Source: Bacteroidia bacterium | GTDB lineage: Bacteria > Bacteroidota > Bacteroidia > Palsa-965 | Direction of reading: 5' to 3' | NCBI GenBank assembly: GCA_044448685.1 | Contig: JBIOHC010000001.1 | Location: 29,941 to 93,940, forward strand | Length of the DNA stretch: 64,000 bases | Shown: in pieces, positions 36,381 through 53,186 of the stretch | How positions within the stretch are numbered: the first letter of the stretch is position 1 | How the letters are laid out: each line of letters opens with the position of its first letter | Position numbers and translations under genes: made by a program | The notes under the pieces: generated by a model | Database searches by the model: none | The model's input: only the letters and a program-made list of their open reading frames with translations | Told to the model about the DNA's origin: nothing

Positions 36381-37769
36381 ATGCCCTCAGATGATAAAAT
36401 AAATAACCCTGTTGAAAACAGGAAACTGGTACGCGGACTGGGACTGCGTGAAGCCACCACTATCAATATGATTGATATGGTTGGCATAGGACCTTTCGTT
36501 ATCATTCCATTTGTTATCGGGTTTATGGGAGGACCCCAATGTATTCTCGCCTGGGTCCTTGGTGCAGTGCTTGCGTATATGGATGGATCGGTATGGGCTG
36601 AATTAGGGGCCGCTTATCCGGCAGCAGGCGGTTCTTATGTTTTTCTTCAGAAAGTATACGGAGAAAAAAAATGGGGTTCCCTGTTTTCTTTCCTGTTTAT
36701 CTGGCAAACAAGTATACAGGCTCCGTTAGTCATCGCTTCGGGTGCTATCGGTCTTTCCAGATACCTCAACTACCTGGTTCCGGTAAATGAATTGCAGCAG
36801 AAAATGGTTGCAGGCGGTCTGGTTATATTACTTGCCATACTTCTGTACCGTAAAATTTCGCAGGTCGGTAAAATTTCACTTGTCATGGGTTTGATTGTAG
36901 CAGGAACAATGATCTGGGTAATTATTGCGGGCTTCACACATTTTCATCTTTCCAACCTTAAAATACCGGAAGGGGCTTTTAACCCACCGGGAGGATTTTT
37001 TAAGGGCCTTGCTTCTGCATCAGCCAAGACTATTTATGCCTTCCTGGGTTATTACAATGTCTGTCACCTCGGAGCAGAAATCAAACAACCTCAGAAAAAC
37101 ATTCCAAGGAGTATTTTTCTGTCCATCACAGGTATTACAATTATCTACCTGCTTATGCAGGTGAGCGTACTGGGTGCAATGCCCTGGCAGGAATCAGAAA
37201 AATCCACATTCCTCATAAGTACATTGTTTGAACGGGTATATGGAATTATTGCAGCCAATCTGGTTACCGGCCTCATATTGCTGGTAGGTCTGGCCAGCCT
37301 TTTTTCAGCAACTCTTGGTTATTCCCGCATCCCTTATGCAGCTGCTGTGCAGGGAAATTTTTTCAAACTATTCGCAAGGATTCATCCCGTACGCCAGTTC
37401 CCTCATATCTCTCTTTTGTTTTTGTGCGGTATAGCTTTTGCCTTCAGCCTCTTCTCCAATTTATCAGCTATTATAACCATCATTGTTATCATGCGAATCC
37501 CGGTCCAGTTCATTGGCCAGGCTGTAGGCCTGATAGCCCTAAGACGAAGAAGTAAGGAGTCGCCCAGACCCTATAAAATGCTATTTTTCCCTGTTCCGGC
37601 TCTACTCAGTATCGTGATCTGGCTCTATATTTTTTGCAGTGTTGAATGGAGTGCAATACTTTCTGCTATAGGCGTGATCCTGACTGGTTTGGTATTGTTT
37701 TTGATCCGGGCCAGATCAAACGAACAATTTCCGTTTGAAACAAACATTCAATCCTCTGAAAACCAATAG
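36381..37769 (+). CDS. APC-superfamily amino-acid/polyamine permease
   Basis: 12 predicted TM segments. Typical APC N-terminal region (…TINMIDMVGIGPFVIIPFV…). Confidence 0.85.
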   Translation: MPSDDKINNPVENRKLVRGLGLREATTINMIDMVGIGPFVIIPFVIGFMGGPQCILAWVLGAVLAYMDGSVWAELGAAYPAAGGSYVFLQKVYGEKKWGSLFSFLFIWQTSIQAPLVIASGAIGLSRYLNYLVPVNELQQKMVAGGLVILLAILLYRKISQVGKISLVMGLIVAGTMIWVIIAGFTHFHLSNLKIPEGAFNPPGGFFKGLASASAKTIYAFLGYYNVCHLGAEIKQPQKNIPRSIFLSITGITIIYLLMQVSVLGAMPWQESEKSTFLISTLFERVYGIIAANLVTGLILLVGLASLFSATLGYSRIPYAAAVQGNFFKLFARIHPVRQFPHISLLFLCGIAFAFSLFSNLSAIITIIVIMRIPVQFIGQAVGLIALRRRSKESPRPYKMLFFPVPALLSIVIWLYIFCSVEWSAILSAIGVILTGLVLFLIRARSNEQFPFETNIQSSENQ

Positions 37770-37853: not shown

Positions 37854-40829
37854 ATGAAAAATACTTACCGCACATTATTCGCATTGTCTTTCCTTGTTAT
37901 GCTACCTGAATTTTCCGTTGCTCAGGAATTCTGGGGTATGACTTCCAGCGGAGGAGCTTATGGACTTGGAACAATTTTCAAAGCTGATTCCGGCTGTACA
38001 AATGCAGTAGCGAAATATTCTTTTGTATCCAATATTCCGGGGTCGAATCCATCGGGCGACCTCGTTCAGGCAAGCAACGGGAAATTTTATGGCATGACGA
38101 CAAACGGAGGGACGAATGGAACCGGTGTGCTATTTGAATATGATGCAACCGGGGGTATTTACACACGCAAATTCGAATTCATAGGAACAACGACAGGAGC
38201 CAATCCTGTCGGTTCGCTTATTCAGGCCGGGAATGGAAAACTGTACGGGATGACCAGCAGCGGAGGTACCGGCAACATCGGAGTACTGTTTTCCTTCGAT
38301 CCCGTCTCTTCTGCATTTGTAAAACTGATTGACTTTTACGGAGCAAACGGTTCAATGCCCACAGGTTCCCTGATGCAGGCAAGTACAGGTAAGTTATATG
38401 GTCTTACAAGTGCAGGCGGAGGCAATGGAAAAGGAATTCTGTTCTCCTATGATCCCGTAACCACCACCTTCATGGATAAATTTGATTTTTCAGGAACAGC
38501 GGATGGAGCAGGCCCTCAGGGATCGCTTATTCAAGCTATGAACGGTAAATTATATGGTCTGACAACCTATGGAGGAATAAAAAATGCCGGGGCCCTTTTT
38601 CAATTCGATACCCTATCAGGAGCACTTTCCAAACTGGCAGATTTCGACACTATTCCCACAGGATGTAATCCAACCGGCTCCCTTGTTGAGATCAGCCATG
38701 GTAAATTATTCGGTACAGCTTCCTATGGGGGAGTAAATACGAATGGTACAATTTTTTCATATGTCATCAGTACGGGCATTTTTAGCAAAGTAGCAGACTT
38801 TAATGTTGCAACACTTGGCGGAACTCCTAACGGATCAATGGTTCTTGCACCCAATGGAAAGTTTTACGGACTGACTTTTGCGGGAGGCACAAACGGGATA
38901 GGTACTCTCTTTCAGCTTGATACCACGACTCTGACACTTGTTAATAAAGTAAATCTCTCCGGCTCAGCAAACGGATCAAATCCTAAAGGTTCTCCTATTC
39001 TGGCAACGGATGGTAAGTTATACGGAATGGATTACAACGGAGGCTTGAACAACAGCGGTGTATTGTTCCAATATGACCCGGGAACAAGTACGTATACTGA
39101 TAAGGTGGATTTTGAAACAGCAGTCAATGGAGCCGTACCTACAGGCAACCTGTATATGGCAACGAATGGAAAATTTTATGGAATGACGACTGCAGGGGGT
39201 ACAAACGGAACGGGTGCCTTATTCGAATTTGATACCGCCACTTCGGTGTTAACCTCCAAGGTGCAGTTCACCGGAGCAAATGGAACAAGCCCGAATGGAT
39301 CCCTTATGCAGGCAAGCAACGGAAAATTATACGGGGTAACAACCGGGGGAGGTACTTCGAATTCAGGTATTTTGTTCGAATACGATCCTGCTTCATCGAC
39401 CTATACTAAAAAGTATGATTTTGACGGTGCAGGTAACGGAGGGGCTCCTTTTTGCACCTTGTTACAGGCAAGCGATGGTTTGATTTATGGAGTAGCTACA
39501 ACCGGGGGAGCTAACAGTGCCGGTGTCCTCTATTCCTTTGACCCTGCAAGTTCAACCTATACCAAGACATTCGACTTTAACACATCGATAGACGGCGGGT
39601 CCCCGTATGGAGCACTCATACAGACAAGCCCTGGACGGCTGTTCGGGTTGACAGCCGGAGGAGGAAATAACGGAACGGGTATACTATATGAATATTCAAT
39701 TTCCTCTGCCGCCTGCACAAAAAGAGTTGATTTTGTTGGAACTACGAATGGTACCAATCCATATGGTGCTCTGGTTTCGATGCCAGGAGGTAAATTATAC
39801 GGAACTACATCAGGAGGAGGCGCTAATGGACTGGGCGTTATTTTCGAATACGATACAGCTTCCGGAACATTGACAAAAGTATTGCCGCTCACTGCACAGC
39901 CAAACGGAAATTTTCCACAAGGATCCATAATCGTTGCCGGGAATCAATTATTTCTGACGACCGTGAATGGGGGGGTGAACAATATTGGAGCACTTGTAGA
40001 ATATGACCCGGTTTCGAACACAGCTGTAAATAAATCGGATTTCGTTCGTACATCGACAGGTGCTGATCCCTACGGTGATCTGGTATATTTCTGTAATCCT
40101 GTTGCCGTAAGCGCCAATTCGGGTGATACAGCCAAATGTCAGGGCAACACAAGTATTTTATGGGTTACTACTACCGGCAAGTATGTAACCTATCAATGGT
40201 ATAAGAATGGAGTTGCAATAGGCGGAGCCACAGGTTCCAAATATATTATTCCAAACATGTCAGCCTCAGACAGTGCATTCTATTACTGTAATGTGCAGAA
40301 TGCATGTGGAAATCTGAATTCATTGCAGGTTCATATTACGCTCAATGCACAGCCTTCAGTTCCCACCATAACACAAAATGGTGCCGTATTAACTTCCAGT
40401 TCGGTAACAGGAAATCAATGGTACCTGAATGGGGTTATTATTACAGGTGCAACGGCTCAGAATTATACGCCGTCAGCGAACGGAAACTATACTGTGACCG
40501 TTACCAATAGCAGTGGATGTTCCGCAACTTCCGCCCCCTTTAATATGACCAATACCGGAATAACGGAAAAAGCCGGAGAGTTGATTATGCAGGTGTTTCC
40601 GAATCCGGCAACGACAACGCTCAATCTTAGTTTCCAGGTGGAGCAAGAAACACAAACAGAATTATCCGTGATGGATCTGCTGGGCAATACGGTTCTGAAT
40701 AGCCGTGCTTATCTTACAAAATCTGCCAATAAAACAGTTTTGGATATCAGTATTCTTAACCCCGGAATGTACGTACTCAAAGTGAGCAGTATTTCTGGTC
40801 AGGGGTTGATAAAGTTCTTCAAACAGTAG
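37854..40829 (+). CDS. Secreted protein with ~13 tandem GloVer-type ~48-aa repeats, Ig-like domains and T9SS C-terminal sorting domain
   Basis: Signal peptide. Repeats of the form NPxGSLxQAxNGKLYGMTxxGGxNGxGVLFEYDxxxxxxTKxxDF. C-terminal FPNPATTTLNLSF…YVLKVSSISGQGLIKFFKQ (T9SS CTD). Confidence 0.8.
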   Translation: MKNTYRTLFALSFLVMLPEFSVAQEFWGMTSSGGAYGLGTIFKADSGCTNAVAKYSFVSNIPGSNPSGDLVQASNGKFYGMTTNGGTNGTGVLFEYDATGGIYTRKFEFIGTTTGANPVGSLIQAGNGKLYGMTSSGGTGNIGVLFSFDPVSSAFVKLIDFYGANGSMPTGSLMQASTGKLYGLTSAGGGNGKGILFSYDPVTTTFMDKFDFSGTADGAGPQGSLIQAMNGKLYGLTTYGGIKNAGALFQFDTLSGALSKLADFDTIPTGCNPTGSLVEISHGKLFGTASYGGVNTNGTIFSYVISTGIFSKVADFNVATLGGTPNGSMVLAPNGKFYGLTFAGGTNGIGTLFQLDTTTLTLVNKVNLSGSANGSNPKGSPILATDGKLYGMDYNGGLNNSGVLFQYDPGTSTYTDKVDFETAVNGAVPTGNLYMATNGKFYGMTTAGGTNGTGALFEFDTATSVLTSKVQFTGANGTSPNGSLMQASNGKLYGVTTGGGTSNSGILFEYDPASSTYTKKYDFDGAGNGGAPFCTLLQASDGLIYGVATTGGANSAGVLYSFDPASSTYTKTFDFNTSIDGGSPYGALIQTSPGRLFGLTAGGGNNGTGILYEYSISSAACTKRVDFVGTTNGTNPYGALVSMPGGKLYGTTSGGGANGLGVIFEYDTASGTLTKVLPLTAQPNGNFPQGSIIVAGNQLFLTTVNGGVNNIGALVEYDPVSNTAVNKSDFVRTSTGADPYGDLVYFCNPVAVSANSGDTAKCQGNTSILWVTTTGKYVTYQWYKNGVAIGGATGSKYIIPNMSASDSAFYYCNVQNACGNLNSLQVHITLNAQPSVPTITQNGAVLTSSSVTGNQWYLNGVIITGATAQNYTPSANGNYTVTVTNSSGCSATSAPFNMTNTGITEKAGELIMQVFPNPATTTLNLSFQVEQETQTELSVMDLLGNTVLNSRAYLTKSANKTVLDISILNPGMYVLKVSSISGQGLIKFFKQ

Positions 40830-40830
40830 G

Positions 40831-41292
40831 CTATGACAAAAGTTTTTGACGCAGCATAAAGTCAAGCTGTTTGTTGGCTTCCAGGAGCATCTCGGTAAGA
40901 TGCTTATTGCTTTCCCTCAGGGAAAAAAGTTCGTAGGCCTGTTCTATGGAAACCCTCAGTTCATGCTCATCCCAGGGTTTACTGATATAGCGGTAAACCT
41001 GACCCTTGTTGATGGCAGAAATAACCGCCTGAATATCAGCATAACCGGTGATCAGTATCCTGACCGGATCAGGATATTCAGTCAGGATGGATTCCAGAAA
41101 CTCCACACCGGTTGTACCGGGCATGCGTTGATCGGTCAGAATGACATGAAAAGTATGTTCCTTCATTAATGTTCTGCCCCGCTCTGCTGATGAAGCCGTT
41201 TGAATATCAAAATCCCTTCTGAACAAAGCTTTGAAAGCAACCAAATTGTTGGTTTCATCGTCTACATACAAAATCTTGATTTTTTTTTCCAT
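40831..41292 (-). CDS. Stand-alone response-regulator receiver domain (CheY-like)
   Basis: ILYVDDE…LTDQRMPGTTGVEFL…ISKPW (conserved D, D, K positions). 153 aa. No output domain. Confidence 0.85.
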   Translation of the reverse strand: MEKKIKILYVDDETNNLVAFKALFRRDFDIQTASSAERGRTLMKEHTFHVILTDQRMPGTTGVEFLESILTEYPDPVRILITGYADIQAVISAINKGQVYRYISKPWDEHELRVSIEQAYELFSLRESNKHLTEMLLEANKQLDFMLRQKLLS

Positions 41293-41339: not shown

Positions 41340-43484
41340 TCAATCGTTGCTCCGGAAAATAGGTAAACTTATGATAAATTCACTTCCTGTTCCGGGCTCC
41401 GAATACACTTTTATTTTACCGTGATGTTTTTCTATAATTGAATGTGTAATGGATAAGCCCAGACCGATTCCCTGTCCAACATCCTTTGTTGAAAAGAAAG
41501 GTTCGAAAATGCGGGGAAGAATTTCCGCCTTTATACCTATACCATTATCCTGAATGCTTATGTACACGTTTTTTTCATCCGAAGAAGAATGAATAGTTAT
41601 AAGCCCTTCTGCGGGGCTTCCCTTCTCTGAAATAGCATGGATAGCATTATTCAGAATATTCATAAATACCTGATTGATTTTACCGGGATAGCATTCAACC
41701 GGAGGAAGGGATCCATACTCCTTCACTATTCTTATCTTATCCTTTACCAATGTATTCAGAAGAATGAGTGTGGCATTCAATCCTTCGTGGATGTCAGCTG
41801 TTTTGAGACTGTCTTCATCCAGACGTGAAAAAACCTTGAGCCCTTTAATGATTTCAGAAGTACGGGATGCGCCATCATCAATACCATGAAGCAGCTCATC
41901 AATTTCCTGCATGGAATAATCCATATCCAGCTCTTTTTTCAGCTTCTGAGCAGCGGCAATGGATTCGTCTGCACGGGGACCGCTTTCGATCTGTTCATAT
42001 TGTTTAAACAGCTGCCTGATTTCATCCAGGGTTCTTTTCAGTGATTTAATATTGGATTTGACAAAATTAATGGGATTGTTTATTTCATGCGCAATGCCGG
42101 CAGTAAGCTGACCGAGTGAAGCCATTTTTTCTGCATCCACCAGCTGGCTTTGGGCTTCTTTTAAGTTGGAGAATGTAAGGCTCAGTTCCTTATTCGTTGT
42201 TTCAAGCTCTGCAGTCCGTTCGTGAACTTTGGTTTCCAGAATCAGGTTCTGCTCCCTGACAATCCTTGCATTTTCCCTTAATGCATCCAATGCGCGAACC
42301 TGGCTTTCTTCCTTTTCTTTTTTAAGAATATTAATGCGATCTGCCAAACCAAAAGAAATCAGAAGAACCTCTAATGCAGAACCGGCCTGCATGGTATAAC
42401 GGGTAAAAGTATTATAGGGCAGTACTTCAAAATCTTTCAGAACAAAGATGCAGATGCCGGTAAGAAATATAGACCAGGCGATTAAAAAGAAACGTGCCGG
42501 GCGATACCCTTTTCTTGTAATGATGAGTGCTTCGGCAAAGATATAGATGGAAACCAGGATAGCGGTGACTTCTATACTCAGGTAGCTGGCCTGATACAGT
42601 TTAAATAAGGAAAGTATGTAACCGATGAGGTATGCGAAATATAGGAGATAGGTAAATTTGTATAGACGGGGAGTATAATGTTTTGTTTGAATAAAAGAGT
42701 GAAGAAAAAACAATCCGGTAACACCAACAAGAGCAGGATAAAAGAATTCAAGATTTATGGCAAGTGCCGGATAGTTCGGGTAAAGAAACTGAAAAGGATA
42801 CCCCTGCAACCCGGTTTGTGTCAGAAGTACACTGGCTATATAAACAACATAGTACAGATAGCTTTTATCCCGGACTGAAAAATAGATAAAGAGGTTATAC
42901 AAAAGCATAACCAGCATGAGTCCCACATAAATTCCCGAAAAAAGATTTTTACCATTAATATGTTCAAACAGGGATTGTTCTGACACTAAGAGGAAGGGCA
43001 GCTGAATCTGATCTGAACTGTGAATCCTTATGAAATAAGTAACCGGGTTATTCACAGGGGCATGCAAGGTGAAAATATAATCCGGAACTTTGTATTTGCG
43101 AAAAGAGAAAGGCTTGAATTCACCTTGTTTGTCTTCCTCGAACCGGCCCTGATCGTTAGGGGAAAACACAGACACTTCATCCAAGGAGGGCTGTTCCAGC
43201 ATCAGCATCAGATGATTTTCCTTGCTGGTATTCAGGACTGTAAATTTTACCCAGAATACGGAATTAGAAAGACCCATATTGGGGACAAGTTGGGTGCTGG
43301 TCCTGAATTTGTCCGACAGGATCACATTTTCAAAAGTAAGTGTGCCGGAGGCATCTTCCAGAATCTCAAGATTAGCTCCTATCCCCTTATTTGTTTCATG
43401 ACCGGTATACAGAATTGGACCGGAAGCATGAGCCTGTATAAAAAAGCCAAATAAGAAGAAAAGTATAAAAGAGAGCTTGTTCAT
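41340..43484 (-). CDS. 7TMR-DISM-type sensor histidine kinase (extracellular DISMED2-like domain + 7TM + HisKA + HATPase_c)
   Basis: Signal peptide. ~170-aa extracellular domain. Seven TM helices. H-box GIAHEINNPINF. G-boxes (…DNGIGIKAEILPRIFEPFFSTK…GIGLGLSITHSII…). Confidence 0.85.
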   Translation of the reverse strand: MNKLSFILFFLFGFFIQAHASGPILYTGHETNKGIGANLEILEDASGTLTFENVILSDKFRTSTQLVPNMGLSNSVFWVKFTVLNTSKENHLMLMLEQPSLDEVSVFSPNDQGRFEEDKQGEFKPFSFRKYKVPDYIFTLHAPVNNPVTYFIRIHSSDQIQLPFLLVSEQSLFEHINGKNLFSGIYVGLMLVMLLYNLFIYFSVRDKSYLYYVVYIASVLLTQTGLQGYPFQFLYPNYPALAINLEFFYPALVGVTGLFFLHSFIQTKHYTPRLYKFTYLLYFAYLIGYILSLFKLYQASYLSIEVTAILVSIYIFAEALIITRKGYRPARFFLIAWSIFLTGICIFVLKDFEVLPYNTFTRYTMQAGSALEVLLISFGLADRINILKKEKEESQVRALDALRENARIVREQNLILETKVHERTAELETTNKELSLTFSNLKEAQSQLVDAEKMASLGQLTAGIAHEINNPINFVKSNIKSLKRTLDEIRQLFKQYEQIESGPRADESIAAAQKLKKELDMDYSMQEIDELLHGIDDGASRTSEIIKGLKVFSRLDEDSLKTADIHEGLNATLILLNTLVKDKIRIVKEYGSLPPVECYPGKINQVFMNILNNAIHAISEKGSPAEGLITIHSSSDEKNVYISIQDNGIGIKAEILPRIFEPFFSTKDVGQGIGLGLSITHSIIEKHHGKIKVYSEPGTGSEFIISLPIFRSND

Positions 43485-44224
43485 ATGCGGACAAAAGGGG
43501 AATATACTAAAGAAAGAGCTTGTGCGTTTTTCAATTCATTAACGTATATAACGATCAGGTCATAGTCTACCTCAAAGGTGCCCTTGGGGCCCGTTTCAAT
43601 AAGGATAGTCCTTGGATTGGCTCTTAGCTCCAACATCCGTCGCCTGTCATACTCTGTACTGCTGGCCAACGTTTCGGCATTCATGATACCAACTACTTTG
43701 GCCAGATATTCTTCAGTAGGATAGATAAAATCTCCATCCTTTCCGAGTGTTTTGTCAATTACAAAACCGACACGGGTGAACATAGGCAGGGAATATTCTG
43801 CACAAATCCCCAGCAAGGTTCGGAAGTGAAGCTGGTTAATAATGGATATGGCAGCCCGCACCAGCAGGATACTGATTCCCCGTCCGGCCACTTCCCTGGC
43901 ATTCCAGAGTCCGCAAAGTTCACCGGTACCTCCATCCTGACGGTGTTTGAGTACAAGATCATATACCTGGGAGTCCATCTTGCCAACTGCGGTTTCAACC
44001 GGCAATGGATGCACTCCATCGGCAACCTGGACACGAATTCCTCCAACTAGTTTACCATCCAGCTCGGCTACTACGCCATAAGTGAATGGATTTTCTGCCC
44101 AGTCTTTGGAATAGGAGGTGACATTGAGGATACCATAATCTTCCAGCACCCTTCGATGGCCTTCTATGTATTCCAGGCATAAGCCCTGCTCCCATACGGG
44201 GTAAAAAGATCTGATTTTCAGCAT
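43481..44224 (-). CDS. GNAT-fold protein resembling LuxI/FeeM-type N-acyl amino-acid (autoinducer-like) synthases, with ~70-aa C-terminal extension
   Basis: 247 aa. β-α GNAT-like core (…YGVVAELDGKLVGGIRVQV…GELCGLWNAREVAGRGISILLVRAAISI…). 4-bp overlap with the downstream HK (ATGA). Family assignment from sequence pattern only. Confidence 0.45.
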   Translation of the reverse strand: MLKIRSFYPVWEQGLCLEYIEGHRRVLEDYGILNVTSYSKDWAENPFTYGVVAELDGKLVGGIRVQVADGVHPLPVETAVGKMDSQVYDLVLKHRQDGGTGELCGLWNAREVAGRGISILLVRAAISIINQLHFRTLLGICAEYSLPMFTRVGFVIDKTLGKDGDFIYPTEEYLAKVVGIMNAETLASSTEYDRRRMLELRANPRTILIETGPKGTFEVDYDLIVIYVNELKNAQALSLVYSPFVRI

Positions 44225-44227
44225 GGA

Positions 44228-46546
44228 TCATTTTAGATACAAGACCTCTGTAAGCGGCCTTCTCAGGGCCTTTGTCTCCATTTCATTTGCAATATGCAAC
44301 TTGATAAGGAATACATGTTCTGTGTTTCCTTCCAGTGCAAACAACCGGTTAAAACGGGCATGCAGTTGGGTAAGTTCTTGTTCCATATGCGGACTGAATC
44401 TTTTCGCCTGACCATGAACAAGGCGACTGAAGAAATAGGTACAGGCAGAAACAGGGTGAACAGAAATACCAAGCAGGTTCGCCTGAATCCAGGCTCGCTG
44501 CAAAGCTCTTCCTCCATTGAAAAAATTCACTGAACTGTATGCCGGCATTGTGACCAGAGCCAGGGCAGAAGCTGTCTGAACAGCCTGCCGTCCCATTTTC
44601 TCAAATGCTGTACCCCCCTTCCAGGCATTCAGGTGGCGTATTACATCCGGCGTTACGGCCATACGGAACCCTGCCAGTTCAGAAGGGGTCAGCTCCACAG
44701 TAGCCAGATCAATCCCGTCCTGGGTGCGTTCTGCATCTTCTTTTGTCCAGCGCATTTCATGGACGAATTCCTGATGGTCTTCTTCATTCATAAGCCGAAT
44801 CCGGTCAACACAGCCAACAATATCCTCCGCTTCTTTCAAGTCGGCATTCGAATCCAGAAATTTCAGATCTGCTCCGGGAATACTCTTTGTTGCAGTTAGC
44901 AGTTGAGACAATCTGTCAGAATCAATCGTCCGGCGTATACCGTATTTTCGATTCGTACCACGGAGAAAAATGCCTTTGCTCAGAGAGTCGCAGGGATGCG
45001 GTTCAAGATGAATATCTTTTGGTAAGGTGGCGGTCTTATAAAAGCGGAAAACGGCAATCAGTTTGCTGTCATCACCTGTCTTGTTCAAGCAGGAAACTTC
45101 CAGATCAAGTTCATGTGCTTTCAGAATAAGATTTTCAGTGGTAGCGCCAAGACCAAGGAAGGAAAAAATATGCTGAAAATCGGAGGACCGTATACGGTCA
45201 TGGAACAGGCAGAGTTTTTTTTCTGTATAGATCCATTTCCAGGGTTGGTTATTTCCGGCTGAAGGAGCAGCAACCGCAGCTGTAATCAGTTCAACGACCT
45301 GTGCTTCACTCAGCTCAAGTTGCGATTCATCCGGCAGTATTGCCTGCAATCGGATAGTTTCAAGCATTTCCTCCCGGGTAAGCTCTGTTTCCTTTGTTGT
45401 ATCTTCAGGAACATGAGGGAGCTGGGCAGGAGCCTTGTCACAAATAAGCTCTTCCAGGTCAACAAAATATCTTCCGGACTCATGAAACTGGTCCAGGGCT
45501 ATCCTTCTGCAAACGTCGGCAGCCAGCGCTCCTCCCAGAACGACAGCGGAGCCAAGCTGTGGCCAGGTGGTCAGTGTCTGACCGATTTCAATCATGGACG
45601 CTTTAAGCTTGGAGGATATTGTTTCTGAACCAAGAATCGGAAGGATATATGGCACTTTTTCTTCGTTGCTGAGGTTCTTAATCTTGCTGATGTCGAGGTG
45701 ATCGATCATGCCATGTAATAAGGGACGATCCGGTTCCAGATCAAACCTTTCCACATCCAGTGTCCCCCTGTCATTCATATCCATCACAACCGGAATCCGG
45801 AGTGCCCTGGCCTTTTGCCGGCATAATATTTTAATATCCAGCCCATCGCACTCTTCCACCAGCATATCCAGTTTTCCTCCTTTCAGAAAAAAATCATCCA
45901 TATTTTCCTCAGTGAGTCCATCGGTATAGCAAACCGTTTTCAGGTAGGGATCCATTTCAGCTATTTCCCGTGCCACGGCAATGGCCTTGCTTATCCCCAG
46001 GTTATAAAGCCCGGTTTGAATCCTGTTCAGGTTGGTAAGCTCCAGTGTATCATAATCGGCCAGGCGTATTTCACCGAAGCTGCGCTCCATAGCCATTGCC
46101 ATGGAAATTGTTTTTCCTACAGAGAGTCCTATTACGCCGACTCTCAGTTGCCCAAGCCGGTCCCGTTCTTCAACAGTAATCTTGTACTGGTTGCGGTTTG
46201 TCCTCACCTCTATAAATTCACTTTCGTCAAGAATATGCAGCAGACGGTATGACCAGGGGTAATATATCCAGACACCATAGTGAGCCGGATCAGAATTTCC
46301 CAGATGCTTATCAACCATCTTATCCAATTGTTCCTGATTCAGTTTCAAGCTCGGGTTCCTGGATTTGAGAAGTTCCCTGAGCTGGGATCTCAACTCATCA
46401 CTTACCTGAATAAAAGGAGAATCCTGAAGAAGCTGATCCATACGCTCCTGTTCACCGGGAGTTTTCAGATTAAAAATACTGGGATGGTAAACGGAATGGT
46501 CCCTTCTTGTCTTATCTGTATGAGAAGCCAGTACTGTTTCAGACAT
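44228..46546 (-). CDS. ThiF/MoeB (E1-like) – nitroreductase-superfamily fusion protein (MoeY/Rv1355c-like architecture)
   Basis: Rossmann GxGxxG (VGVIGLSVGKTISMAMA) and E1-like core (~residues 130–380). C-terminal ~330-aa nitroreductase/Acg-like FMN domain with the PSAGNNQPW signature. 772 aa. Confidence 0.8.
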   Translation of the reverse strand: MSETVLASHTDKTRRDHSVYHPSIFNLKTPGEQERMDQLLQDSPFIQVSDELRSQLRELLKSRNPSLKLNQEQLDKMVDKHLGNSDPAHYGVWIYYPWSYRLLHILDESEFIEVRTNRNQYKITVEERDRLGQLRVGVIGLSVGKTISMAMAMERSFGEIRLADYDTLELTNLNRIQTGLYNLGISKAIAVAREIAEMDPYLKTVCYTDGLTEENMDDFFLKGGKLDMLVEECDGLDIKILCRQKARALRIPVVMDMNDRGTLDVERFDLEPDRPLLHGMIDHLDISKIKNLSNEEKVPYILPILGSETISSKLKASMIEIGQTLTTWPQLGSAVVLGGALAADVCRRIALDQFHESGRYFVDLEELICDKAPAQLPHVPEDTTKETELTREEMLETIRLQAILPDESQLELSEAQVVELITAAVAAPSAGNNQPWKWIYTEKKLCLFHDRIRSSDFQHIFSFLGLGATTENLILKAHELDLEVSCLNKTGDDSKLIAVFRFYKTATLPKDIHLEPHPCDSLSKGIFLRGTNRKYGIRRTIDSDRLSQLLTATKSIPGADLKFLDSNADLKEAEDIVGCVDRIRLMNEEDHQEFVHEMRWTKEDAERTQDGIDLATVELTPSELAGFRMAVTPDVIRHLNAWKGGTAFEKMGRQAVQTASALALVTMPAYSSVNFFNGGRALQRAWIQANLLGISVHPVSACTYFFSRLVHGQAKRFSPHMEQELTQLHARFNRLFALEGNTEHVFLIKLHIANEMETKALRRPLTEVLYLK

Positions 46547-47827: not shown

Positions 47828-49108
47828 TTATTTGGCATTGAAAAGGGCGAAGCTTTCTTTTTCAAGCCTTTCCCTATGATCCGGATGTGCAATATCAGTG
47901 AGCATTCTGGCCCGGTCTTTGCGGTTACGTCCGTATAAATTTGCAATACCATACTCTGTTACAACATAATGTACATGTGCCCGGGTGGTTACCACCCCTG
48001 CACCGGAATGAAGCATGGGAACAATCCTTGATTCTCCCTTCGATGTTGTAGCATGCAGGGCTATGATCGGCTTTCCGCCTTCCGAAAGAGAAGCCCCACG
48101 GATAAAATCCATTTGCCCGCCGACACCTGAATACATTACCGGACCAATACTGTCAGCACAAACCTGACCACTCAGATCAATTTCTATGGCACTGTTAATG
48201 GCAACCACCTTGGGATTCTGTCTGATAATATGGGTATCATTTACATAGGCGGCATCCTCCATTTCAATAAGAGGATTGTCATCTACAAATTCATACAGTC
48301 TCCTGCTCCCCAGAATAAAGCCGGCTACTATTTTGCCGGGATGTTTTTTCTTAAAAGCACCGGTAATGACACCTTTTTCAACAAGGTCAATAACCCCGTC
48401 TGAGAACATTTCACTGTGGATGCCAAGGTGTCTGTGATTCTTAAGCTCTCCGAGTACAGCATTGGGAATTTTACCTATTCCCATCTGCAGGGTTGACCCA
48501 TCTTCAATGAGCCCGGCAACATACCTGGCAATCTTTCTATCCCTTTCATCCGGTTTGCCACTGTGAATTTCAGGCAATGGATGGTTTACTTCAACCATAT
48601 GTGTGAAACGGGACCTGTGAATCAGTCCCGCCCCGTGGGTTCTTGGCATCTGAGGGTTAACCTGTGCGATAAGGCAGGAGGCATTCTCAATTGCAGAAAG
48701 TGCCAGGTCAACGGAAATGCCCAGGCTACAGTAACCATGTTTATCCGGAGGTGAAACATGGAGCAGGGCTATATCAAGAGGGATAATTTTTTTTCTGAAT
48801 AAGGCAGGAACTTCACTCAGGAAAACCGGAATGTAATCAGCCATACCTGTTATAAGCGCCTTCCTGGTATTGGTACCAATAAAAAAGCAATTTGTTTTGA
48901 AATGTCCCCTTAAAGACTCATCAATATAAGGAGCATCCCCTTCTGTATGCATCTGATATATCTGAATATCAGAAAGGCTTTTACCTTTCTCCACCATTGC
49001 CATAATAAGTTCGGCCGGGGCAGCAGCAGCAGATTGTATAAAAACACGGGAACCTGATTTAAGCTCTGAAAGAGCTTCATGTGCTGTAGAATAACCGTTT
49101 TGATTCAT
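47828..49108 (-). CDS. Acetyl-CoA hydrolase/transferase-family enzyme (e.g. succinyl-CoA:acetate or 4-hydroxybutyrate CoA-transferase type)
   Basis: 426 aa. Family-typical N-terminus MNQNGYSTAHEALSELKSGSRVFI and conserved GIG…E region. Confidence 0.8.
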   Translation of the reverse strand: MNQNGYSTAHEALSELKSGSRVFIQSAAAAPAELIMAMVEKGKSLSDIQIYQMHTEGDAPYIDESLRGHFKTNCFFIGTNTRKALITGMADYIPVFLSEVPALFRKKIIPLDIALLHVSPPDKHGYCSLGISVDLALSAIENASCLIAQVNPQMPRTHGAGLIHRSRFTHMVEVNHPLPEIHSGKPDERDRKIARYVAGLIEDGSTLQMGIGKIPNAVLGELKNHRHLGIHSEMFSDGVIDLVEKGVITGAFKKKHPGKIVAGFILGSRRLYEFVDDNPLIEMEDAAYVNDTHIIRQNPKVVAINSAIEIDLSGQVCADSIGPVMYSGVGGQMDFIRGASLSEGGKPIIALHATTSKGESRIVPMLHSGAGVVTTRAHVHYVVTEYGIANLYGRNRKDRARMLTDIAHPDHRERLEKESFALFNAK

Positions 49109-50383: not shown

Positions 50384-50545
50384 AATGCAATATTATTTCA
50401 AATAAAAAATCCCTGAAAAGACCTTCATCATGCCCAAACTTGAGTTATGTCACCCGAATTCTTGAGGCAGGTCATCTTCCTTTCACCCGGAAGAAGGTTT
50501 CTTTGTGTAAGATGATAGGTAATCCAACCCCTGTAAAAACTGATG

Positions 50546-51970
50546 ATGAACAAAAATCTCTTCATTTTATTCTTATTCCTGTCTCAGGCCGGTCTTTCAC
50601 AGGTCAAAAAATGGTCCCTGAAGGAGTGTATGCAAACAGCATTGGAGCATAATATCAGTCTGAACCAAAATAAACTTACCATCGAGTCTGCTCGGGCTGT
50701 TTGGGAGCAAAGTCAGTATAACCTCTATCCTACCCTGAATCTGAGTGATGCACAGAACTTCAATTTCGGACGTTCCATAGACCCGGTTTCGTACCAGTAT
50801 ACCAGCCAGAATTTTGCAACCAATACCCCTTCCCTGAATAGTACTGTCACCTTGTATGGAGGTTTTCGCAACCTGAATCTGGTGAAAGAAAATAAGCTCA
50901 GTTATATGGCGGGGACATTGGACCTCGAGAAGATGCAAAATGACTTGTCTTTAAATGTAATAGGCGCTTATATGCAGGTTTTACTTGCAGCGGAAGCGAT
51001 GAATCTGGCAATGGAGCAGGCTGCATCAACGAGTATTCAGGCCGAGCGGACAGAAAAATTTGTGAATGCTGGAAAGTATCCGGAATTAAACCTGCTACAG
51101 GTACGGTCTCAGCTCGCATCGGACAAATCAGCCATTGTAGATGCAGAGAACGCCCTGCAAATTGCCAAAGTCAATCTGATGCAGCTGATGGAGCTTCCGG
51201 TTGTCCCAGAGTTTGATATTGAAAAGCCGGTGCTGGAAACGGCTCTTTCAGAATTGGCGATAACACCGGCGGAGGTGGTTTATAAAAACGCACTTTCCTG
51301 GCAGCCCCAGGTTAAAAGTGCAGTGTACAGGTCACAGGCAGCAGAAACAGACCTCCGGATTTCACAGGGATCTATCCTGCCCGTACTGAGTCTTTCAGGC
51401 GCATTGCGTACAAGCTATTCAAGTCTGAGAAGCCGGACCTCTGAGCAAATAAGCTATCAGCGGGAAACTATCGGGTATCTGCAAGGCAACTTATCTCAGC
51501 CTGTCATTGGACTGATTCCAGTCAGTATCATTTCATCTTCCGGTTATCCTATCGGAAAACAATTCAGTGATAATTTCAGTCAGGCGGCAGGCCTGACGCT
51601 TACGATTCCCATATTCAATAATTTTCAGGGCAAGTATGCAATTGTCAGGTCAAAAATCGGGATTCAGAATGCCAGGTTGAATGAGGATGCGGTAAAAATA
51701 CAATTACGCAAAACGGTAGAACAGGCCTGCACCGATCAGTCAGGAGCGGCAAAAAAATTAGCAGCGACAACCGAACAGGAGAAGTCCGAAGAGCGAACAT
51801 ATGTTGATATGGAAAAAAAACTCAATGCCGGGATCGCAAATATGACTGATTTTCTGATCGAGAAAAGCAATTACAACAAAGCCAGAATTTCCAGATTGGT
51901 GTCGAAATACGATTATGCCTATAAAACAAAAGTGGTGGACTTCTATCTGGGTAAACCGCTATCATTCTGA
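50546..51970 (+). CDS. TolC-family outer-membrane efflux protein
   Basis: Signal peptide. Two repeated OEP helical/β-barrel halves. 474 aa. Heads an efflux operon. Confidence 0.85.
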   Translation: MNKNLFILFLFLSQAGLSQVKKWSLKECMQTALEHNISLNQNKLTIESARAVWEQSQYNLYPTLNLSDAQNFNFGRSIDPVSYQYTSQNFATNTPSLNSTVTLYGGFRNLNLVKENKLSYMAGTLDLEKMQNDLSLNVIGAYMQVLLAAEAMNLAMEQAASTSIQAERTEKFVNAGKYPELNLLQVRSQLASDKSAIVDAENALQIAKVNLMQLMELPVVPEFDIEKPVLETALSELAITPAEVVYKNALSWQPQVKSAVYRSQAAETDLRISQGSILPVLSLSGALRTSYSSLRSRTSEQISYQRETIGYLQGNLSQPVIGLIPVSIISSSGYPIGKQFSDNFSQAAGLTLTIPIFNNFQGKYAIVRSKIGIQNARLNEDAVKIQLRKTVEQACTDQSGAAKKLAATTEQEKSEERTYVDMEKKLNAGIANMTDFLIEKSNYNKARISRLVSKYDYAYKTKVVDFYLGKPLSF

Positions 51971-51975
51971 ATAAC

Positions 51976-53184
51976 ATGAAAAAGAGTTTATTATATGGCA
52001 CTGCAATTCTTCTTCTGGGGGTTGGTATCTATTACTATTACAACCATAAACAAGGTACAGCATTGCCTGTCTGGAAAACAGCCAAAGTGGAAAAAGGAAA
52101 CCTGGTACAGCTGATATCCGCTACAGGAACTGTAGCGGCCGATACGACTATACTGGTCGGTACACAGGTTTCCGGTATTATTGCAAAAATCCTGGTGGAT
52201 TTCAATTCTGTGGTTAAGCAGGGTCAGATCATAGCCATTCTGGATACTACATTCCTTTATGCTTCCAAGGAAGATGCCGAGGCGACGATGGAGAAGGCAA
52301 TTGGTCAAACCAATGAGATGAAAAGAGAATATGACAGAGCCCGGGAACTATTTGACCAGAAAGTTGCGGCACAGGCCGATTATGACATTGCCTTGTCGAA
52401 TTATGAGTCGGCTAAAAGCACCCAGCGTTCGGCAAAAGCGCAGCTTGACAGAGCAATAATTAATCTGCGCTATGCCACTATAAAAGCTCCTGTGAGCGGT
52501 ACTGTTATTTCACGAAATGTAGATGTTGGACAGACAGTCATCTCCAGTTTTAATTCACCCACACTTTTTACGATTGCCAATGATCTGACCAAAATGCAGG
52601 TTCAGGCCAATGTGGATGAAGCGGATATCGGATTCATTAAGGTTGGGCAAACCGTTGAGTTCAATGTGGATGCATTTGCTGATGAATTGTTTTACGGTTT
52701 GGTTCAGCAAATCCGTATGCAACCCGTTACGGTCCAGAATGTCGTGAACTATGTGGTCATCATTGATGTAGCTAATAAAGAGCGCAAACTCATGCCCGGT
52801 CTTACAGCCAACATCCGGATTAAAGTGAATGAACATGACGGAGTACTGAAAGTTCCTGCCAATGCACTCCACTTCATGCCTCCTCCGGATTATCCCGGGA
52901 CTGTTAAAGTACCTGATTCCATACTTCGCAAATCAGAGAGTCTGACAGCTCCCGCCGGTGAAGAGGTGAAGAAAAGAAGTTATGTGCTCTGGCTCAAGTC
53001 GGGAGCCTTTGTGTACCCGGTGCGGGTGATAACGGGCTTAACGGACGGATTGTTAACAGAAGTTTCTGGAAATATCAGGGCCGGTAGTGAAGTTGCTACA
53101 GGAGTTCTGACAGAAACGGCTGCTGTTACACAACAAAAAAATCCCTTTATGCCGCAATTTCCTCAGCGTAAGAAAACACCCTGA
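51976..53184 (+). CDS. Efflux periplasmic adaptor (membrane-fusion protein, MacA/HlyD-like)
   Basis: N-terminal TM anchor, coiled-coil hairpin, lipoyl/β-barrel signature (…IKAPVSGTVISRNVDVGQTV…). Confidence 0.85.
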   Translation: MKKSLLYGTAILLLGVGIYYYYNHKQGTALPVWKTAKVEKGNLVQLISATGTVAADTTILVGTQVSGIIAKILVDFNSVVKQGQIIAILDTTFLYASKEDAEATMEKAIGQTNEMKREYDRARELFDQKVAAQADYDIALSNYESAKSTQRSAKAQLDRAIINLRYATIKAPVSGTVISRNVDVGQTVISSFNSPTLFTIANDLTKMQVQANVDEADIGFIKVGQTVEFNVDAFADELFYGLVQQIRMQPVTVQNVVNYVVIIDVANKERKLMPGLTANIRIKVNEHDGVLKVPANALHFMPPPDYPGTVKVPDSILRKSESLTAPAGEEVKKRSYVLWLKSGAFVYPVRVITGLTDGLLTEVSGNIRAGSEVATGVLTETAAVTQQKNPFMPQFPQRKKTP

Positions 53185-53186
53185 TC

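Follow-up and report, generated by a model that had tools for sequence, protein, structure and literature searches.

Together with its downstream neighbour (gene A), the gene analysed here (gene S) probably specifies a bifunctional N-acyl oxazolone synthetase and its partner acyltransferase. Taken alone, the enzyme is a further member of a known oxazolone synthetase family; the histidine kinase module into which S and A are hard-wired appears to be undescribed. Since the S/A pair lies almost always beside a 7TMR-DISM kinase in Bacteroidota, this linkage suggests an undescribed small-molecule signalling circuit of the synthase-receptor kind. The evidence for S in this phylum comprises sequence, structural models and gene order, at 33-35% identity to actinobacterial enzymes of the characterised type. 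The positions of all features in the window (the whole 64 kb stretch of DNA that was analysed) are collected in Table 1.

Table 1. Genes, protein domains and residues of the synthetase locus, with positions in the window.
Feature	Position	Strand	Basis
Stand-alone receiver (REC), 153 aa, without DNA-binding output domain	40831..41292	minus	Pfam, Response_reg only
7TMR-DISM sensor histidine kinase, 714 aa	41340..43484	minus	Pfam 7TMR-DISM_7TM 175 bits, DISMED2 102 bits, HATPase_c, HisKA
A, predicted N-acyltransferase of GNAT / AHL-synthase / FeeM-type fold, 247 aa	43481..44224	minus	AF2, Foldseek, hhalign, synteny
S, predicted TrzS/OxzB-type N-acyl oxazolone synthetase, 772 aa	44228..46546	minus	NF005901, AF2 model
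S residues 400-772, Acg-like tandem nitroreductase-fold flavin-dependent oxidase (FDO) domain	44231..45349	minus	2YMV matches
S residues 111-372, ThiF/E1-like adenylating cyclase domain	45431..46216	minus	Pfam ThiF, TcdA match, Foldseek
S residues 1-110, family-specific N-terminal domain	46217..46546	minus	NF005901 match from residue 13; confident AF2 model
H697 of S, at the position of M. smegmatis TrzS Q651	44456..44458	minus	primer GVSV[Q>A]PVS, window GISVHPVS
R584 of S, equivalent to M. smegmatis TrzS R540	44795..44797	minus	primer TDRI[R>A]YL, window VDRIRLM
D234 of S, equivalent to M. smegmatis TrzS D217	45845..45847	minus	primer VEEC[D>A]SLD, window VEECDGLD
Cytoplasmic REC-HisKA-HATPase hybrid, 361 aa	46620..47705	minus	Pfam

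Synthesis of N-acyl oxazolones has been described for OxzB, from the OxzAB pair of Pseudoalteromonas rubra (de Rond, Asay and Moore, 2020-21; bioRxiv 10.1101/2020.06.11.147165), for TyzA/TyzB/TyzC of M. tuberculosis (Grigg et al., 2023; PMC10404671) and, in the form of N-acyl tryptazolones, for Rv1355c (TrzS) and Rv1356c (TrzA) in M. tuberculosis, M. smegmatis and Rhodococcus jostii RHA1 (Kleetz et al., JBC, December 2025; PMC12856293). OxzB, TyzBC and TrzS are ATP-dependent cyclases and FMN oxidases which convert an N-acyl amino acid to an N-acyl oxazolone without a YcaO protein (bioRxiv 10.1101/2020.06.11.147165; PMC10404671; PMC12856293), the substrate of the characterised members being the free N-acyl amino acid and the ThiF domain the ATP-using cyclase (PMC12856293; bioRxiv 10.1101/2020.06.11.147165). 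The TrzS reaction needs ATP and O2, and D217A, R540A and Q651A variants of the enzyme have been assayed (PMC12856293). OxzB and TyzB fall into a different ThiF subcluster from TrzS (PMC12856293), and Rv1355c has been assigned to group FDO-A4, the Acg group being FDO-B (PMC10404671). An earlier note on this DNA had described S as an E1-like domain fused to a nitroreductase/Acg-like FMN domain, in the layout of Rv1355c/MoeY-type proteins ‘of unknown function’; the fusion and the layout are borne out below, but the functional label is outdated now that OxzB, TyzBC and TrzS have been characterised as N-acyl oxazolone synthetases.

The S protein matches the NCBIfam model NF005901 (‘Rv1355c family protein’) over its full length with 807.5 bits (cutoff 476; residues 13-769 aligned to positions 4-718 of the 722-position model), and 86-95% of its own length aligns at 32-36% identity with annotated actinobacterial Rv1355c-family proteins. 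Both of the motifs on which the description of the fusion was based are present: VGVIGLSVGKTISMAMA spans residues 136-152 (nt 46091..46141), PSAGNNQPW spans residues 428-436 (nt 45239..45265), and Pfam recognises ThiF at residues 122-254 (52 bits, cutoff 28.1) and Nitroreductase at residues 412-441 (28.5 bits, cutoff 23.5). The Acg-family model NF047509 aligned to residues 420-702 with 97.9 bits, under its cutoff of 199; the FMN domain of S is fused to ThiF and is not a stand-alone protein of about 330 aa as in the Acg family. SagB-type profiles, likewise named for a check in the earlier note, gave no match at E<=0.01 in the NCBIfam search, and McbC-type models gave none either. A PDB profile search with S returned M. 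smegmatis Acg (2YMV, E 2.5e-12, residues 406-705) and, as the nearest PDB sequence match for the ThiF domain, TcdA (4D79, E 2e-9, residues 130-263), an oxazolone-forming cyclodehydratase (PMC12596934). The AF2 model of S (pLDDT 88.8) resembles 2YMV and ThiF-type structures, with Foldseek pairing the FDO domain with 2YMV (E 1.9e-13, TM 0.79) and the ThiF domain with 9EGB (‘AclA’ of Tenacibaculum discolor) and ThiF 1ZFN.

Equivalence between residues of S and those of M. smegmatis TrzS was read through the published mutagenic primers, and conservation was assessed in a sample of 80 relatives. Two of the three residues tested in TrzS are kept in S. The Asp whose replacement (D217A) abolishes cyclase activity (PMC12856293) corresponds to D234, which is present in all 80 relatives and in five actinobacterial proteins, and the Arg whose replacement (R540A) leads to loss of FMN and build-up of the cyclised intermediate (PMC12856293) corresponds to R584, conserved in 78/80. 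At the third position, Q651, S has H697 and departs from the residue tested; the relatives carry His (42), Gln (35) or Tyr (2), His is also found in Rhodococcus copies, and His/Gln at this site is a natural dimorphism of the family. The motifs of the cyclase domain, namely R115-T-N-R118 (a candidate Arg finger), the G140-L-S-V-G144 loop, LAD164-Y-D166, N172-L-N-R175, K187 and EEC-D234, are invariant in 80/80 relatives and mostly common to Actinobacteria too. The E1 active-site Asp and a candidate Arg finger, both raised as points to verify, are in place, and the conserved Asp and FMN-site Arg, together with the invariant ATP-binding glycine loop, speak in favour of an active enzyme. This loop is unusual; of five actinobacterial Rv1355c-family proteins used for comparison, four also have G-L-S-V-G and that of N. 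farcinica has G-Q-S-V-G. Motifs of the FDO domain are PSAGNNQPW, R529-G-T-N-R533, DRI-R584 and H697-P, whilst the residues of the N-terminal domain that are invariant among the relatives include P22, Q55, G91, W93, W98 and H104.

Gene A, directly downstream of S, went unmentioned in the earlier note. It starts 3 nt past the S stop codon, its end overlaps the start of the 7TM kinase gene in an ATGA, and it adjoins S in 77/80 related loci. Pfam gave a weak Acetyltransf_1 match. The AF2 model (pLDDT 89.5) found its best Foldseek matches in CoA-dependent AHL synthases and FeeM (BjaI, MesI, RpaI, EsaI and FeeM 2G0B), and the same structural neighbours, AHL synthases and FeeM, have been reported for TyzA (PMC10404671). 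When A was compared by hhalign with the proteins encoded next to S homologues in Actinobacteria, the two were related with a probability of 89% (E 2.3e-6, 24% identity), the actinobacterial profile being built from 3 sequences, drawn from loci located by plasmid tblastn and called TrzA-like by gene position only. By this profile comparison A is a remote homologue of the actinobacterial proteins encoded beside TrzS. A PDB profile search with the A alignment gave nothing meaningful (best E 2.2), and a search of representative sequences with the A profile contained no TrzA-type proteins among its best 150 matches, all of which were close family at E<=1e-40. Fold, remote homology and synteny lead us to predict that A is an N-acyl amino acid synthase which feeds S.

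The sensor-kinase neighbourhood pointed out from the sequence is confirmed by Pfam for the two-component genes, and the link is strongly conserved. The 7TM kinase consists of a signal peptide, DISMED2 (residues 37-167), the 7TM region (180-383), HisKA with the H-box AHEINNP at residue 465, and HATPase (602-709); the REC-kinase hybrid carries the acceptor Asp in LTDQRMPG, K-P-W and the H-box SASHDLRAP. Gaps between the module genes are 3, -4, 47 and 73 nt, and these junctions indicate that A, S and the kinase share a transcript and are coupled in translation, with no divergent regulation. A 7TMR-DISM histidine kinase flanks the S/A pair in 77/80 related genome loci, in three gene orders, and each of the 77 A-bearing loci has the 7TM kinase or a fragment of it after S/A, with 76 of these ORFs falling into one full-length cluster. 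In most related loci the REC-kinase hybrid lies beside the 7TM kinase and a paralogous stand-alone REC is present, often divergent from S; a relative at 70% identity has the same gene order. When the search was reversed and seeded by the kinase sensor, A lay nearby in 43 of 46 informative metagenome loci. The tailoring enzyme in these 43 loci was ThiF-FDO in 23, ThiF only in 9, a class-I methyltransferase in 8, an FAD oxidase in 2 and an ICMT methyltransferase in 1. No receiver protein of the module contains a DNA-binding domain. Within the kinase, divergence is greatest in the periplasmic DISMED2 domain (29% mean identity), and a comparison of sensor divergence with tailoring-enzyme type gave next to no effect, only +0.03 in identity for the 7TM region and about 0 for DISMED2.

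Signalling genes also neighbour the actinobacterial systems, c-di-GMP genes adjoining trzAS in M. tuberculosis (Kleetz et al., PMC12856293) and a GGDEF gene lying beside the S/acyltransferase pair in Rhodococcus plasmid copies. An upstream CoA-transferase gene (47828..49108), at first a candidate for the module, was set aside because none of the 80 loci has a homologue of it. A universal stress protein and an efflux system are also encoded nearby in the window. The whole window was free of Rfam matches, and between 40400 and 49400 neither promoter-like sites (20, against 18.4±3.8 in shuffles; the sigma-70 consensus is inappropriate for Bacteroidota) nor terminator-like sites (13, against 8.8±2.7) were clearly above shuffled sequence. 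In the literature searched, no paper linked 7TMR-DISM proteins to oxazolones, ThiF, nitroreductases or N-acyl amino acids.

In the pathway that we propose, A would acylate an amino acid on its alpha-amino group, with acyl-CoA or acyl-ACP as the donor, and so produce an N-acyl amino acid. The ThiF-like domain of S would then adenylate the carboxylate with Mg-ATP, with the participation of D234, and attack by the amide oxygen would close a 5(4H)-oxazolone ring, after which the Acg-like FMN domain (R584, H697) would desaturate the C-alpha/C-beta bond with O2 to yield a conjugated N-acyl oxazolone; neither YcaO nor a peptide substrate would play any part. Acylation, cyclisation and desaturation by A and S are likely, the acylation step being read from fold, remote homology and synteny and the two later steps, which have been demonstrated in family members, from conserved residues. 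It is likely, too, that these enzymes form one functional unit with the 7TMR-DISM kinase, the cytoplasmic REC-kinase hybrid and the stand-alone REC encoded in the same module. In the circuit we favour, the 7TM kinase would sense a hydrophobic N-acyl amino acid derivative with a masked carboxylate, which would serve as the signal, and a phosphorelay made up of both REC proteins would lead to an output encoded elsewhere. That the kinase senses the S/A product has, in our estimate, somewhat less than an even chance; the idea draws on conserved but rearranged synteny, and synteny cannot tell product sensing from kinase control of production or a response to the same stress.

The same oxazolone chemistry might instead yield an effector, that is a stress-protective or membrane-active lipid or an antimicrobial, with the kinase sensing some other cue (envelope state, or polysaccharide via DISMED2) and the phosphorelay controlling enzyme production or activity. 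We consider this rather unlikely, but it can call on sub-lethal antibiotics inducing oxazolone production in Proteobacteria, where a signalling phenotype was not seen (bioRxiv 10.1101/2020.06.11.147165), on the ties of the tyz genes to oxidative stress and macrophage survival (PMC12856293; PMC10404671) and on the antimicrobial or biofilm effects of the related N-acyl dehydrotyrosines (PMC12856293). The divergence of DISMED2, which does not track tailoring-enzyme type, and the closeness of the stress protein and efflux genes would fit an effector as well. The module, however, contains no DNA-binding response regulator which could switch the operon on directly, and its enzymes are coupled to the kinase in transcription and translation. 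Moreover, it is the acyltransferase that stays with the kinase, whilst the tailoring enzyme is swapped, and such a pattern is seen more typically where signals diversify than with a single protective lipid.

Two further readings concern the chemistry itself. The likening of S to thiazole/oxazole (TOMM) systems holds loosely, in that cyclodehydration is followed by flavin-dependent oxidation, but fails for the substrate, which would be an N-acyl amino acid and not a peptide. An actual TOMM/RiPP-like system, in which the E1-like and FMN domains make an azole or azoline on a ribosomal peptide and the YcaO and precursor are encoded elsewhere, is highly improbable: an E1-like domain joined to a nitroreductase-fold flavoprotein does recall SagC/SagB, and ThiF-like enzymes are common in RiPP pathways (PMC12596934), but the SagB-type and McbC-type models failed to match at E<=0.01, the conserved neighbour is a FeeM/AHL-synthase-like acyltransferase and characterised family members use free N-acyl amino acids. 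The reported lack of YcaO stands for window ORFs of at least 330 aa, three of which had no Pfam match of any kind, and extends to the conserved module of the 80 related loci; with the ThiF domain itself the ATP-dependent cyclase, the lack of a YcaO or precursor peptide has no bearing, and the small gaps of the module leave no room for a precursor ORF. Virtually negligible, in our view, is the chance that S is a MoeB/ThiF-type adenylyltransferase for a sulfur carrier in molybdopterin or thiamin synthesis, or a lone Acg-like nitroreductase in redox stress, as the historical gene name moeY and weak matches to ThiF, MoeB and TcdA models might imply. All MoeB/ThiF/MoeZ equivalog models scored 18-54 bits against cutoffs of 152-647 (the best, ThiF NF006395, 54 against 159; MoeB 32 against 266) and the CxxC zinc motif is absent from S, so S is not a molybdopterin enzyme, as had been suspected from its neighbourhood; in addition, the module has no MoaD/ThiS-like, Moco or thiamin genes, and the real activity of the family has been settled by experiment.

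The physiological role of oxazolones is ‘a major unresolved question’ according to the TrzS authors, and oxazolones were not detected in M. tuberculosis (PMC12856293). The module described here turns a vague idea of a signal into a concrete one, with one ligand family and one candidate receptor, in several cultured hosts (Pedobacter, Daejeonella, Mucilaginibacter and Arachidicoccus), among them Pedobacter glucosidilyticus DSM 23534, Daejeonella lutea DSM 22385 and Arachidicoccus ginsenosidivorans Gsoil 809. Bacteroidota are, to our knowledge, largely without classical AHL circuits, and the module bears both on communication in this phylum and on the cues sensed by 7TMR-DISM receptors. As a tentative proposal, possible rather than probable, A, a swappable tailoring enzyme and a 7TMR-DISM kinase may constitute a widespread, unrecognised system of cell-cell or self-signalling in Bacteroidota. 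In such a system ThiF-FDO would give an oxazolone, ThiF alone a saturated azlactone and SAM or ICMT methyltransferases a methyl ester, each masking the carboxylate, and the dedicated kinase of the same operon would detect the product and pass the signal to the REC-kinase hybrid and the single-domain REC. If this is true, oxazolones would gain a long-sought physiological role and 7TMR-DISM receptors their first lipid-like ligand class; lipid binding is not known for the characterised 7TMR-DISM proteins RetS and LadS.

Among known systems, TrzS/TrzA shares with S and A the NCBIfam family, the three-part layout (an N-terminal domain followed by a ThiF cyclase and an Acg-like FDO), the Asp and Arg examined by mutagenesis, and an adjacent acyltransferase gene. 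Signalling genes lie near both, c-di-GMP genes (GGDEF/EAL) there and a 7TMR-DISM two-component phosphorelay here. S differs from TrzS in phylum, by its identity of 33-35% and by its His at the position of M. smegmatis Q651, and TrzA is encoded upstream of TrzS whereas A is downstream of S in the window, though upstream in some Bacteroidota relatives. OxzB/OxzA and TyzA/B/C follow the same logic, in which a synthase makes the N-acyl amino acid, a ThiF-type enzyme cyclises it with ATP and a flavin-dependent step desaturates it, and acyltransferases of the OxzA/TyzA type have the FeeM/BjaI-like fold predicted for A. The ThiF and FDO proteins of the Tyz system are, however, separate where those of S are fused, the Oxz/Tyz products are derived from tyrosine or phenylalanine, and adjacent two-component genes have not been reported there.

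Of the more distant relatives, the ThiF-like TcdA forms an oxazolone ring by ATP-dependent cyclodehydration, as proposed for S, but acts on tRNA (ct6A) and has a canonical GxGGxG loop, the G-L-S-V-G loop of S being one residue shorter. Acg (2YMV) is a monomeric tandem nitroreductase-fold FMN protein, stand-alone, of the FDO-B group and without a link to oxazolones. SagBCD and McbBCD are loosely alike in their E1-like domain and in coupling ATP-dependent heterocyclisation to subsequent FMN-dependent oxidation, but need YcaO as the ATP-using cyclodehydratase and a ribosomal peptide, neither of which features here. On the receptor side, RetS and LadS of Pseudomonas aeruginosa have the same DISMED2, 7TM and histidine kinase core as the kinase of the window; they are hybrid kinases of the Gac/Rsm network, without an adjacent small-molecule synthase. 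A parallel in gene organisation lies with the quorum-sensing loci LuxM/LuxN, CqsA/CqsS, LqsA/LqsS/LqsR and PhcB/PhcS/PhcR, in which the gene for a hydrophobic-signal synthase sits beside that for a polytopic membrane histidine kinase and the receivers lack DNA-binding domains; PhcB, a methyltransferase whose product is a fatty-acid methyl ester signal, is a counterpart of the methyltransferase variants found in the Bacteroidota module. These loci are unrelated to the module in sequence and differ from it in signal chemistry, receptor family (7TMR-DISM here) and phylum, the likeness being one of gene linkage, and this quorum-type linkage of synthase and kinase is present, in rearranged orders, in 77/80 genome loci and 43/46 informative metagenome loci.

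S, the window protein with ThiF/E1-like and Acg-like FMN domains, contains both motifs claimed for it in the earlier note (VGVIGLSVGKTISMAMA, residues 136-152; PSAGNNQPW, residues 428-436), and its two-domain layout is real, as judged from Pfam (ThiF, 122-254; the start only of a nitroreductase domain, 412-441), NCBIfam, PDB profile matches and an AlphaFold2 model. NCBIfam model NF005901, 'Rv1355c family protein', matched S over its full length at 807.5 bits (curated cutoff 476), every score of the MoeB, ThiF, MoeZ and TcdA equivalog models was far under cutoff, the Acg-family model gave 97.9 bits (cutoff 199) and no SagB-type model matched. Profile searches of the PDB retrieved M. smegmatis Acg (2YMV) for residues 406-705 at E 2.5e-12 and TcdA for residues 130-263 at E 2e-9, and the AlphaFold2 model (pLDDT 88.8) resembles 2YMV (TM 0.79) as well as the ThiF-type structures 9EGB and 1ZFN (TM 0.75-0.80). 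The top ThiF-type structure by Foldseek, 9EGB, also comes from Bacteroidota and was released in 2025 under the title 'AclA from Tenacibaculum discolor in complex with substrate'; for it, a literature search found no accessible paper on function. Database relatives of S number 2,728 at E<=1e-5, the nearest labelled 'MAG: Bacteroidia bacterium', and S is an ordinary, intact member of this large family. It passed the tests for membership of the TrzS family, save for a histidine at the Q651 position, and failed those for TOMM machinery, for the Acg family proper and for MoeB/ThiF sulfur-carrier activators, the last in agreement with the view of the earlier note that the protein points away from molybdopterin biosynthesis.

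The layout had been described as of unknown function, which is outdated. The ThiF-nitroreductase OxzB from Pseudoalteromonas rubra, paired with the N-acyltransferase OxzA, depends on ATP to make N-acyl tyrazolones and phenazolones (De Rond, Asay and Moore, bioRxiv 10.1101/2020.06.11.147165), the same chemistry is carried out by M. tuberculosis TyzA/TyzB/TyzC, with Rv1355c assigned to nitroreductase subgroup FDO-A4 (Grigg et al. 2023, PMC10404671), and Rv1356c/Rv1355c have been characterised as TrzA/TrzS (Kleetz et al., JBC, December 2025, PMC12856293). TrzA attaches the acyl group to tryptophan; N-acyl tryptophan is then cyclised with ATP by the TrzS ThiF domain and desaturated with O2 by the flavin-dependent oxidase (FDO) domain of the same protein; D217A abolished cyclisation, and R540A and Q651A impaired FMN binding and desaturation (PMC12856293). 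Acetonitrile was found to be needed for extraction and quenching in that study. The ThiF-like cyclase TcdA likewise forms an oxazolone ring (PMC12596934). The comparison with TOMM systems is a loose one; the characterised family needs neither YcaO nor a peptide and its cyclase is the ThiF domain. The oxazolone papers cover Pseudomonadota, Actinomycetota and Planctomycetota, and 'Bacteroid' was found in the 2025 TrzS paper (PMC12856293) only within a reference title. As an enzyme, S is an uncharacterised member of a known family, in a phylum outside published work, and this recent literature accounts for most of the original finding.

Residue contexts of M. smegmatis TrzS were decoded from the supplementary mutagenic primers of the 2025 paper and mapped onto S, and residues were counted in an alignment of 80 sequences (S and 79 relatives). 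D217 (VEEC[D]SLD) corresponds to D234 (VEECDGLD; Asp in 80/80), R540 (TDRI[R]YL) to R584 (VDRIRLM; Arg in 78/80) and Q651 (GVSV[Q]PVS) to H697 (GISVHPVS), a position held by His in 42, Gln in 35 and Tyr in two of the 80. The choice between His and Gln partly follows gene order relative to A, the acyltransferase partner of S (A upstream, H 26 and Q 3; A downstream, Q 32 and H 15), and may mark two functional subclades. Neither of the losses named beforehand as counting against the assignment, that of the glycine loop or of the FMN residues, is seen in S, whose two FMN-site positions mapped here are the conserved R584 and the variant H697. Compared with the GxGGxG of TcdA, its nucleotide loop, G-L-S-V-G, is shorter by one residue. 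Most S motifs, this loop included, are common to Rv1355c-family proteins on Rhodococcus, Mycolicibacterium, Mycobacterium and Nocardia plasmid records (33-35% identity to S; G-Q-S-V-G in N. farcinica), some of which also have His at the Q651 position, and the loop is atypical yet a family hallmark.

A itself had been omitted from the earlier note. Its stop overlaps the next start codon (ATGA), Pfam gives a weak GNAT match alone, and a PDB search with its sequence profiles found nothing. The top matches of its AlphaFold2 model (pLDDT 89.5) are the CoA-dependent AHL synthases BjaI, MesI, RpaI and EsaI, and FeeM, an N-acyl amino acid synthase (2G0B; TM 0.79, rmsd 3.4 Å). A shares FeeM and BjaI as structural neighbours with TyzA, for which both were reported (Grigg et al., PMC10404671). 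When run against all ORFs of five actinobacterial loci, a profile of Bacteroidota A selected the proteins adjoining the Rv1355c-family gene, the match in Nocardia farcinica being a 249-aa ORF directly upstream of it, i.e. in the trzA position; profile-profile alignment of A with actinobacterial S-adjacent proteins gave a probability of 89% (E 2.3e-6, 161 columns). We conclude that A is predicted to serve the pathway as its N-acyl amino acid synthase; its relationship to TrzA-type proteins is remote and falls short of close orthology. Among unusual A-domain fusion proteins in the database, the ThiF half is linked straight to the acyltransferase, with no FDO domain, in P0347 (632 aa, named 'Rv1355c family protein'), P0337 bears a TIR domain at its N terminus and P0305 leucine-rich repeats; these and P0244 may be true fusions or gene-calling artefacts. 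Because family membership is strong, two of the three tested residues are conserved and a suitably folded partner is encoded where one would be expected, it is highly probable that A would make an N-acyl amino acid which S would cyclise and desaturate to an N-acyl oxazolone.

GTDB representative genomes scanned with the S alignment yielded 577 relatives; the comparison used the best 80 loci, which come almost entirely from Bacteroidota (Pedobacter, Mucilaginibacter, Daejeonella, Chitinophagaceae, Flavobacteriales, Crocinitomicaceae and Cytophaga). Carriers available in culture include Pedobacter glucosidilyticus DSM 23534, Daejeonella lutea DSM 22385 and Arachidicoccus ginsenosidivorans Gsoil 809. 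S adjoins an A homologue and then a 7TMR-DISM histidine kinase (7TM-HK) in 77 of these best 80, and most of the 77 also hold a REC-HisKA-HATPase hybrid (REC-HK) and a stand-alone REC. Three gene orders occur, that of the window (REC-HK, S, A, 7TM-HK, REC) being common to the nearest relatives. All-against-all clustering of the 80 loci revealed no further widely conserved gene except a second stand-alone REC of ~133 aa (DIQMPxMNGFEF...KPL), which follows REC-HK in 47/80 and is lacking in the window. A DNA-binding domain is absent from all receiver proteins of the module. The three exceptions, two Sorangium loci and one Blastocatellia locus with a different GNAT gene upstream, are genuinely without two-component genes. 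MAG records with non-Bacteroidota names include L041, L077 ('Bifidobacterium'), L046 ('Azovibrio'), L050 ('Janthinobacterium') and L039 ('Blastocatellia'); several such records hold a complete Bacteroidota-type module (44-46% identity), for which binning or labelling errors are probably responsible rather than horizontal transfer.

In the reverse direction, metagenomes were scanned starting from the kinase's sensor half. This produced 412 relatives and 80 loci, 46 of them informative (3.6 kb or more of sequence upstream of the kinase), and A lay within 6 kb of the kinase in 43 of the 46. The enzyme beside A was a full ThiF-FDO protein (23 loci), the N-terminal plus ThiF half alone (~370 aa, FDO not found nearby; nine), a class-I SAM methyltransferase occupying the same slot (eight), an FAD_binding_4 oxidase (two) or an ICMT-family carboxyl methyltransferase (one), the S-less modules having another enzyme in the slot between A and the 7TM kinase. 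What stays constant is therefore the pairing of A with the 7TM kinase, and the tailoring step can be exchanged. The short S (L094, L098, L099, L101, L107, L114, L138, L140 and L151), equivalent to residues ~15-372 of the window protein, had no FDO domain within 6 kb in any of the nine loci and would be expected to end at the saturated oxazolone, barring an oxidase gene elsewhere. Oxazolone cyclisation would mask the N-acyl amino acid's carboxylate, and the ICMT-family enzyme would probably mask the same carboxylate. Stand-alone ThiF genes with 40-45% identity to the N-terminal plus ThiF half are found, too, on Streptomyces and Kitasatospora plasmids.

Nearby CoA-transferase, permease and efflux genes could supply or export the chemistry of the module, and are retained in a 70%-identical relative. 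No homologue of the CoA-transferase was found in the 80 related loci, and the three are therefore probably mere neighbours. Two proteins with T9SS sorting domains fit a Bacteroidota origin.

Positions of the features discussed, in the window and in the loci compared
Feature	Record	Position	Strand	Remark
S	window	44228..46546	-	772-aa ORF
H697 codon of S	window	44456..44458		Q651 position
A	window	43481..44224	-	247-aa ORF, 3 nt past S stop codon
Acetyl-CoA hydrolase/transferase-family protein	window	47828..49108	-	butyryl-CoA:acetate CoA-transferase-like
Amino acid permease	window	36381..37769	+	
TolC/HlyD/MacB-type efflux system	window	50543..55167	+	
Ig-domain protein, 991 aa	window	37854..40829	+	T9SS C-terminal sorting domain; convergent with module REC gene
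M43 peptidase, PKD domains	window	2297..4390	-	T9SS C-terminal sorting domain
Fused HemC-HemD	window	29151..30731	-	porphobilinogen deaminase + uroporphyrinogen-III synthase; adjoins HemA
HemA	window	31943..33178		
ORF, 744 aa	window	58..2292	+	no Pfam match at E<=1e-5
ORF, 713 aa	window	10251..12392	-	no Pfam match at E<=1e-5
ORF, 350 aa	window	30718..31770	-	no Pfam match at E<=1e-5
Second REC	L004	16199-16603		
Short S	L098	6157-7269		
Slot enzyme, S-less module	L093	7185-7988		
Slot enzyme, S-less module	L147	7124-7903		
Slot enzyme, S-less module	L134	7227-7991		
Slot enzyme, S-less module	L143	7249-7902		
Slot enzyme, S-less module	L104	2650-4170		
Slot enzyme, S-less module	L127	4346-5974		
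GGDEF-domain gene	L082	2872-3807		Rhodococcus plasmid
GGDEF-domain gene	L085	2779-3930		Rhodococcus plasmid

Because the synteny survives rearrangement and is reciprocal, the S/A enzymes and the phosphorelay probably form one functional unit. The link to signalling on which the earlier note remarked is upheld to this extent (77/80; 43/46). Our favoured candidate, put forward tentatively and at rather less than even odds, is a synthase-receptor circuit, since the genes share one orientation and show translational coupling, the module has no transcription factor as output that could simply control the operon, and the combination of an unchanging receptor partner with a tailoring enzyme that diversifies resembles signal diversification at the LuxM/LuxN, CqsA/CqsS, LqsA/S/R and PhcB/S/R loci. 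The main rival keeps the chemistry and makes the lipid an effector controlled by the phosphorelay. With kinase-core divergence controlled, tailoring-enzyme type had almost no effect on sensor divergence, and no signalling phenotype has been found to date for oxazolones elsewhere (PMC12856293; bioRxiv 10.1101/2020.06.11.147165). The recurring actinobacterial link to signalling genes fits the circuit and the effector alike: the signalling genes rv1354c/rv1357c are associated with Rv1356c/Rv1355c in M. tuberculosis (PMC12856293), and on Rhodococcus plasmids a GGDEF-domain gene lies beside a divergent A-like/Rv1355c-family pair, paralleling the c-di-GMP genes on either side of M. tuberculosis trzAS. 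Mycolicibacterium and Mycobacterium plasmid copies adjoin a cytochrome P450 and a TetR regulator instead, and no A-like gene was detected among the annotated genes of these loci.

Full-text literature searches found neither operon-level coupling to a 7TMR-DISM phosphorelay nor a module family with swappable tailoring enzymes, and the conserved module gives experiments direct access to the purpose that oxazolones serve.
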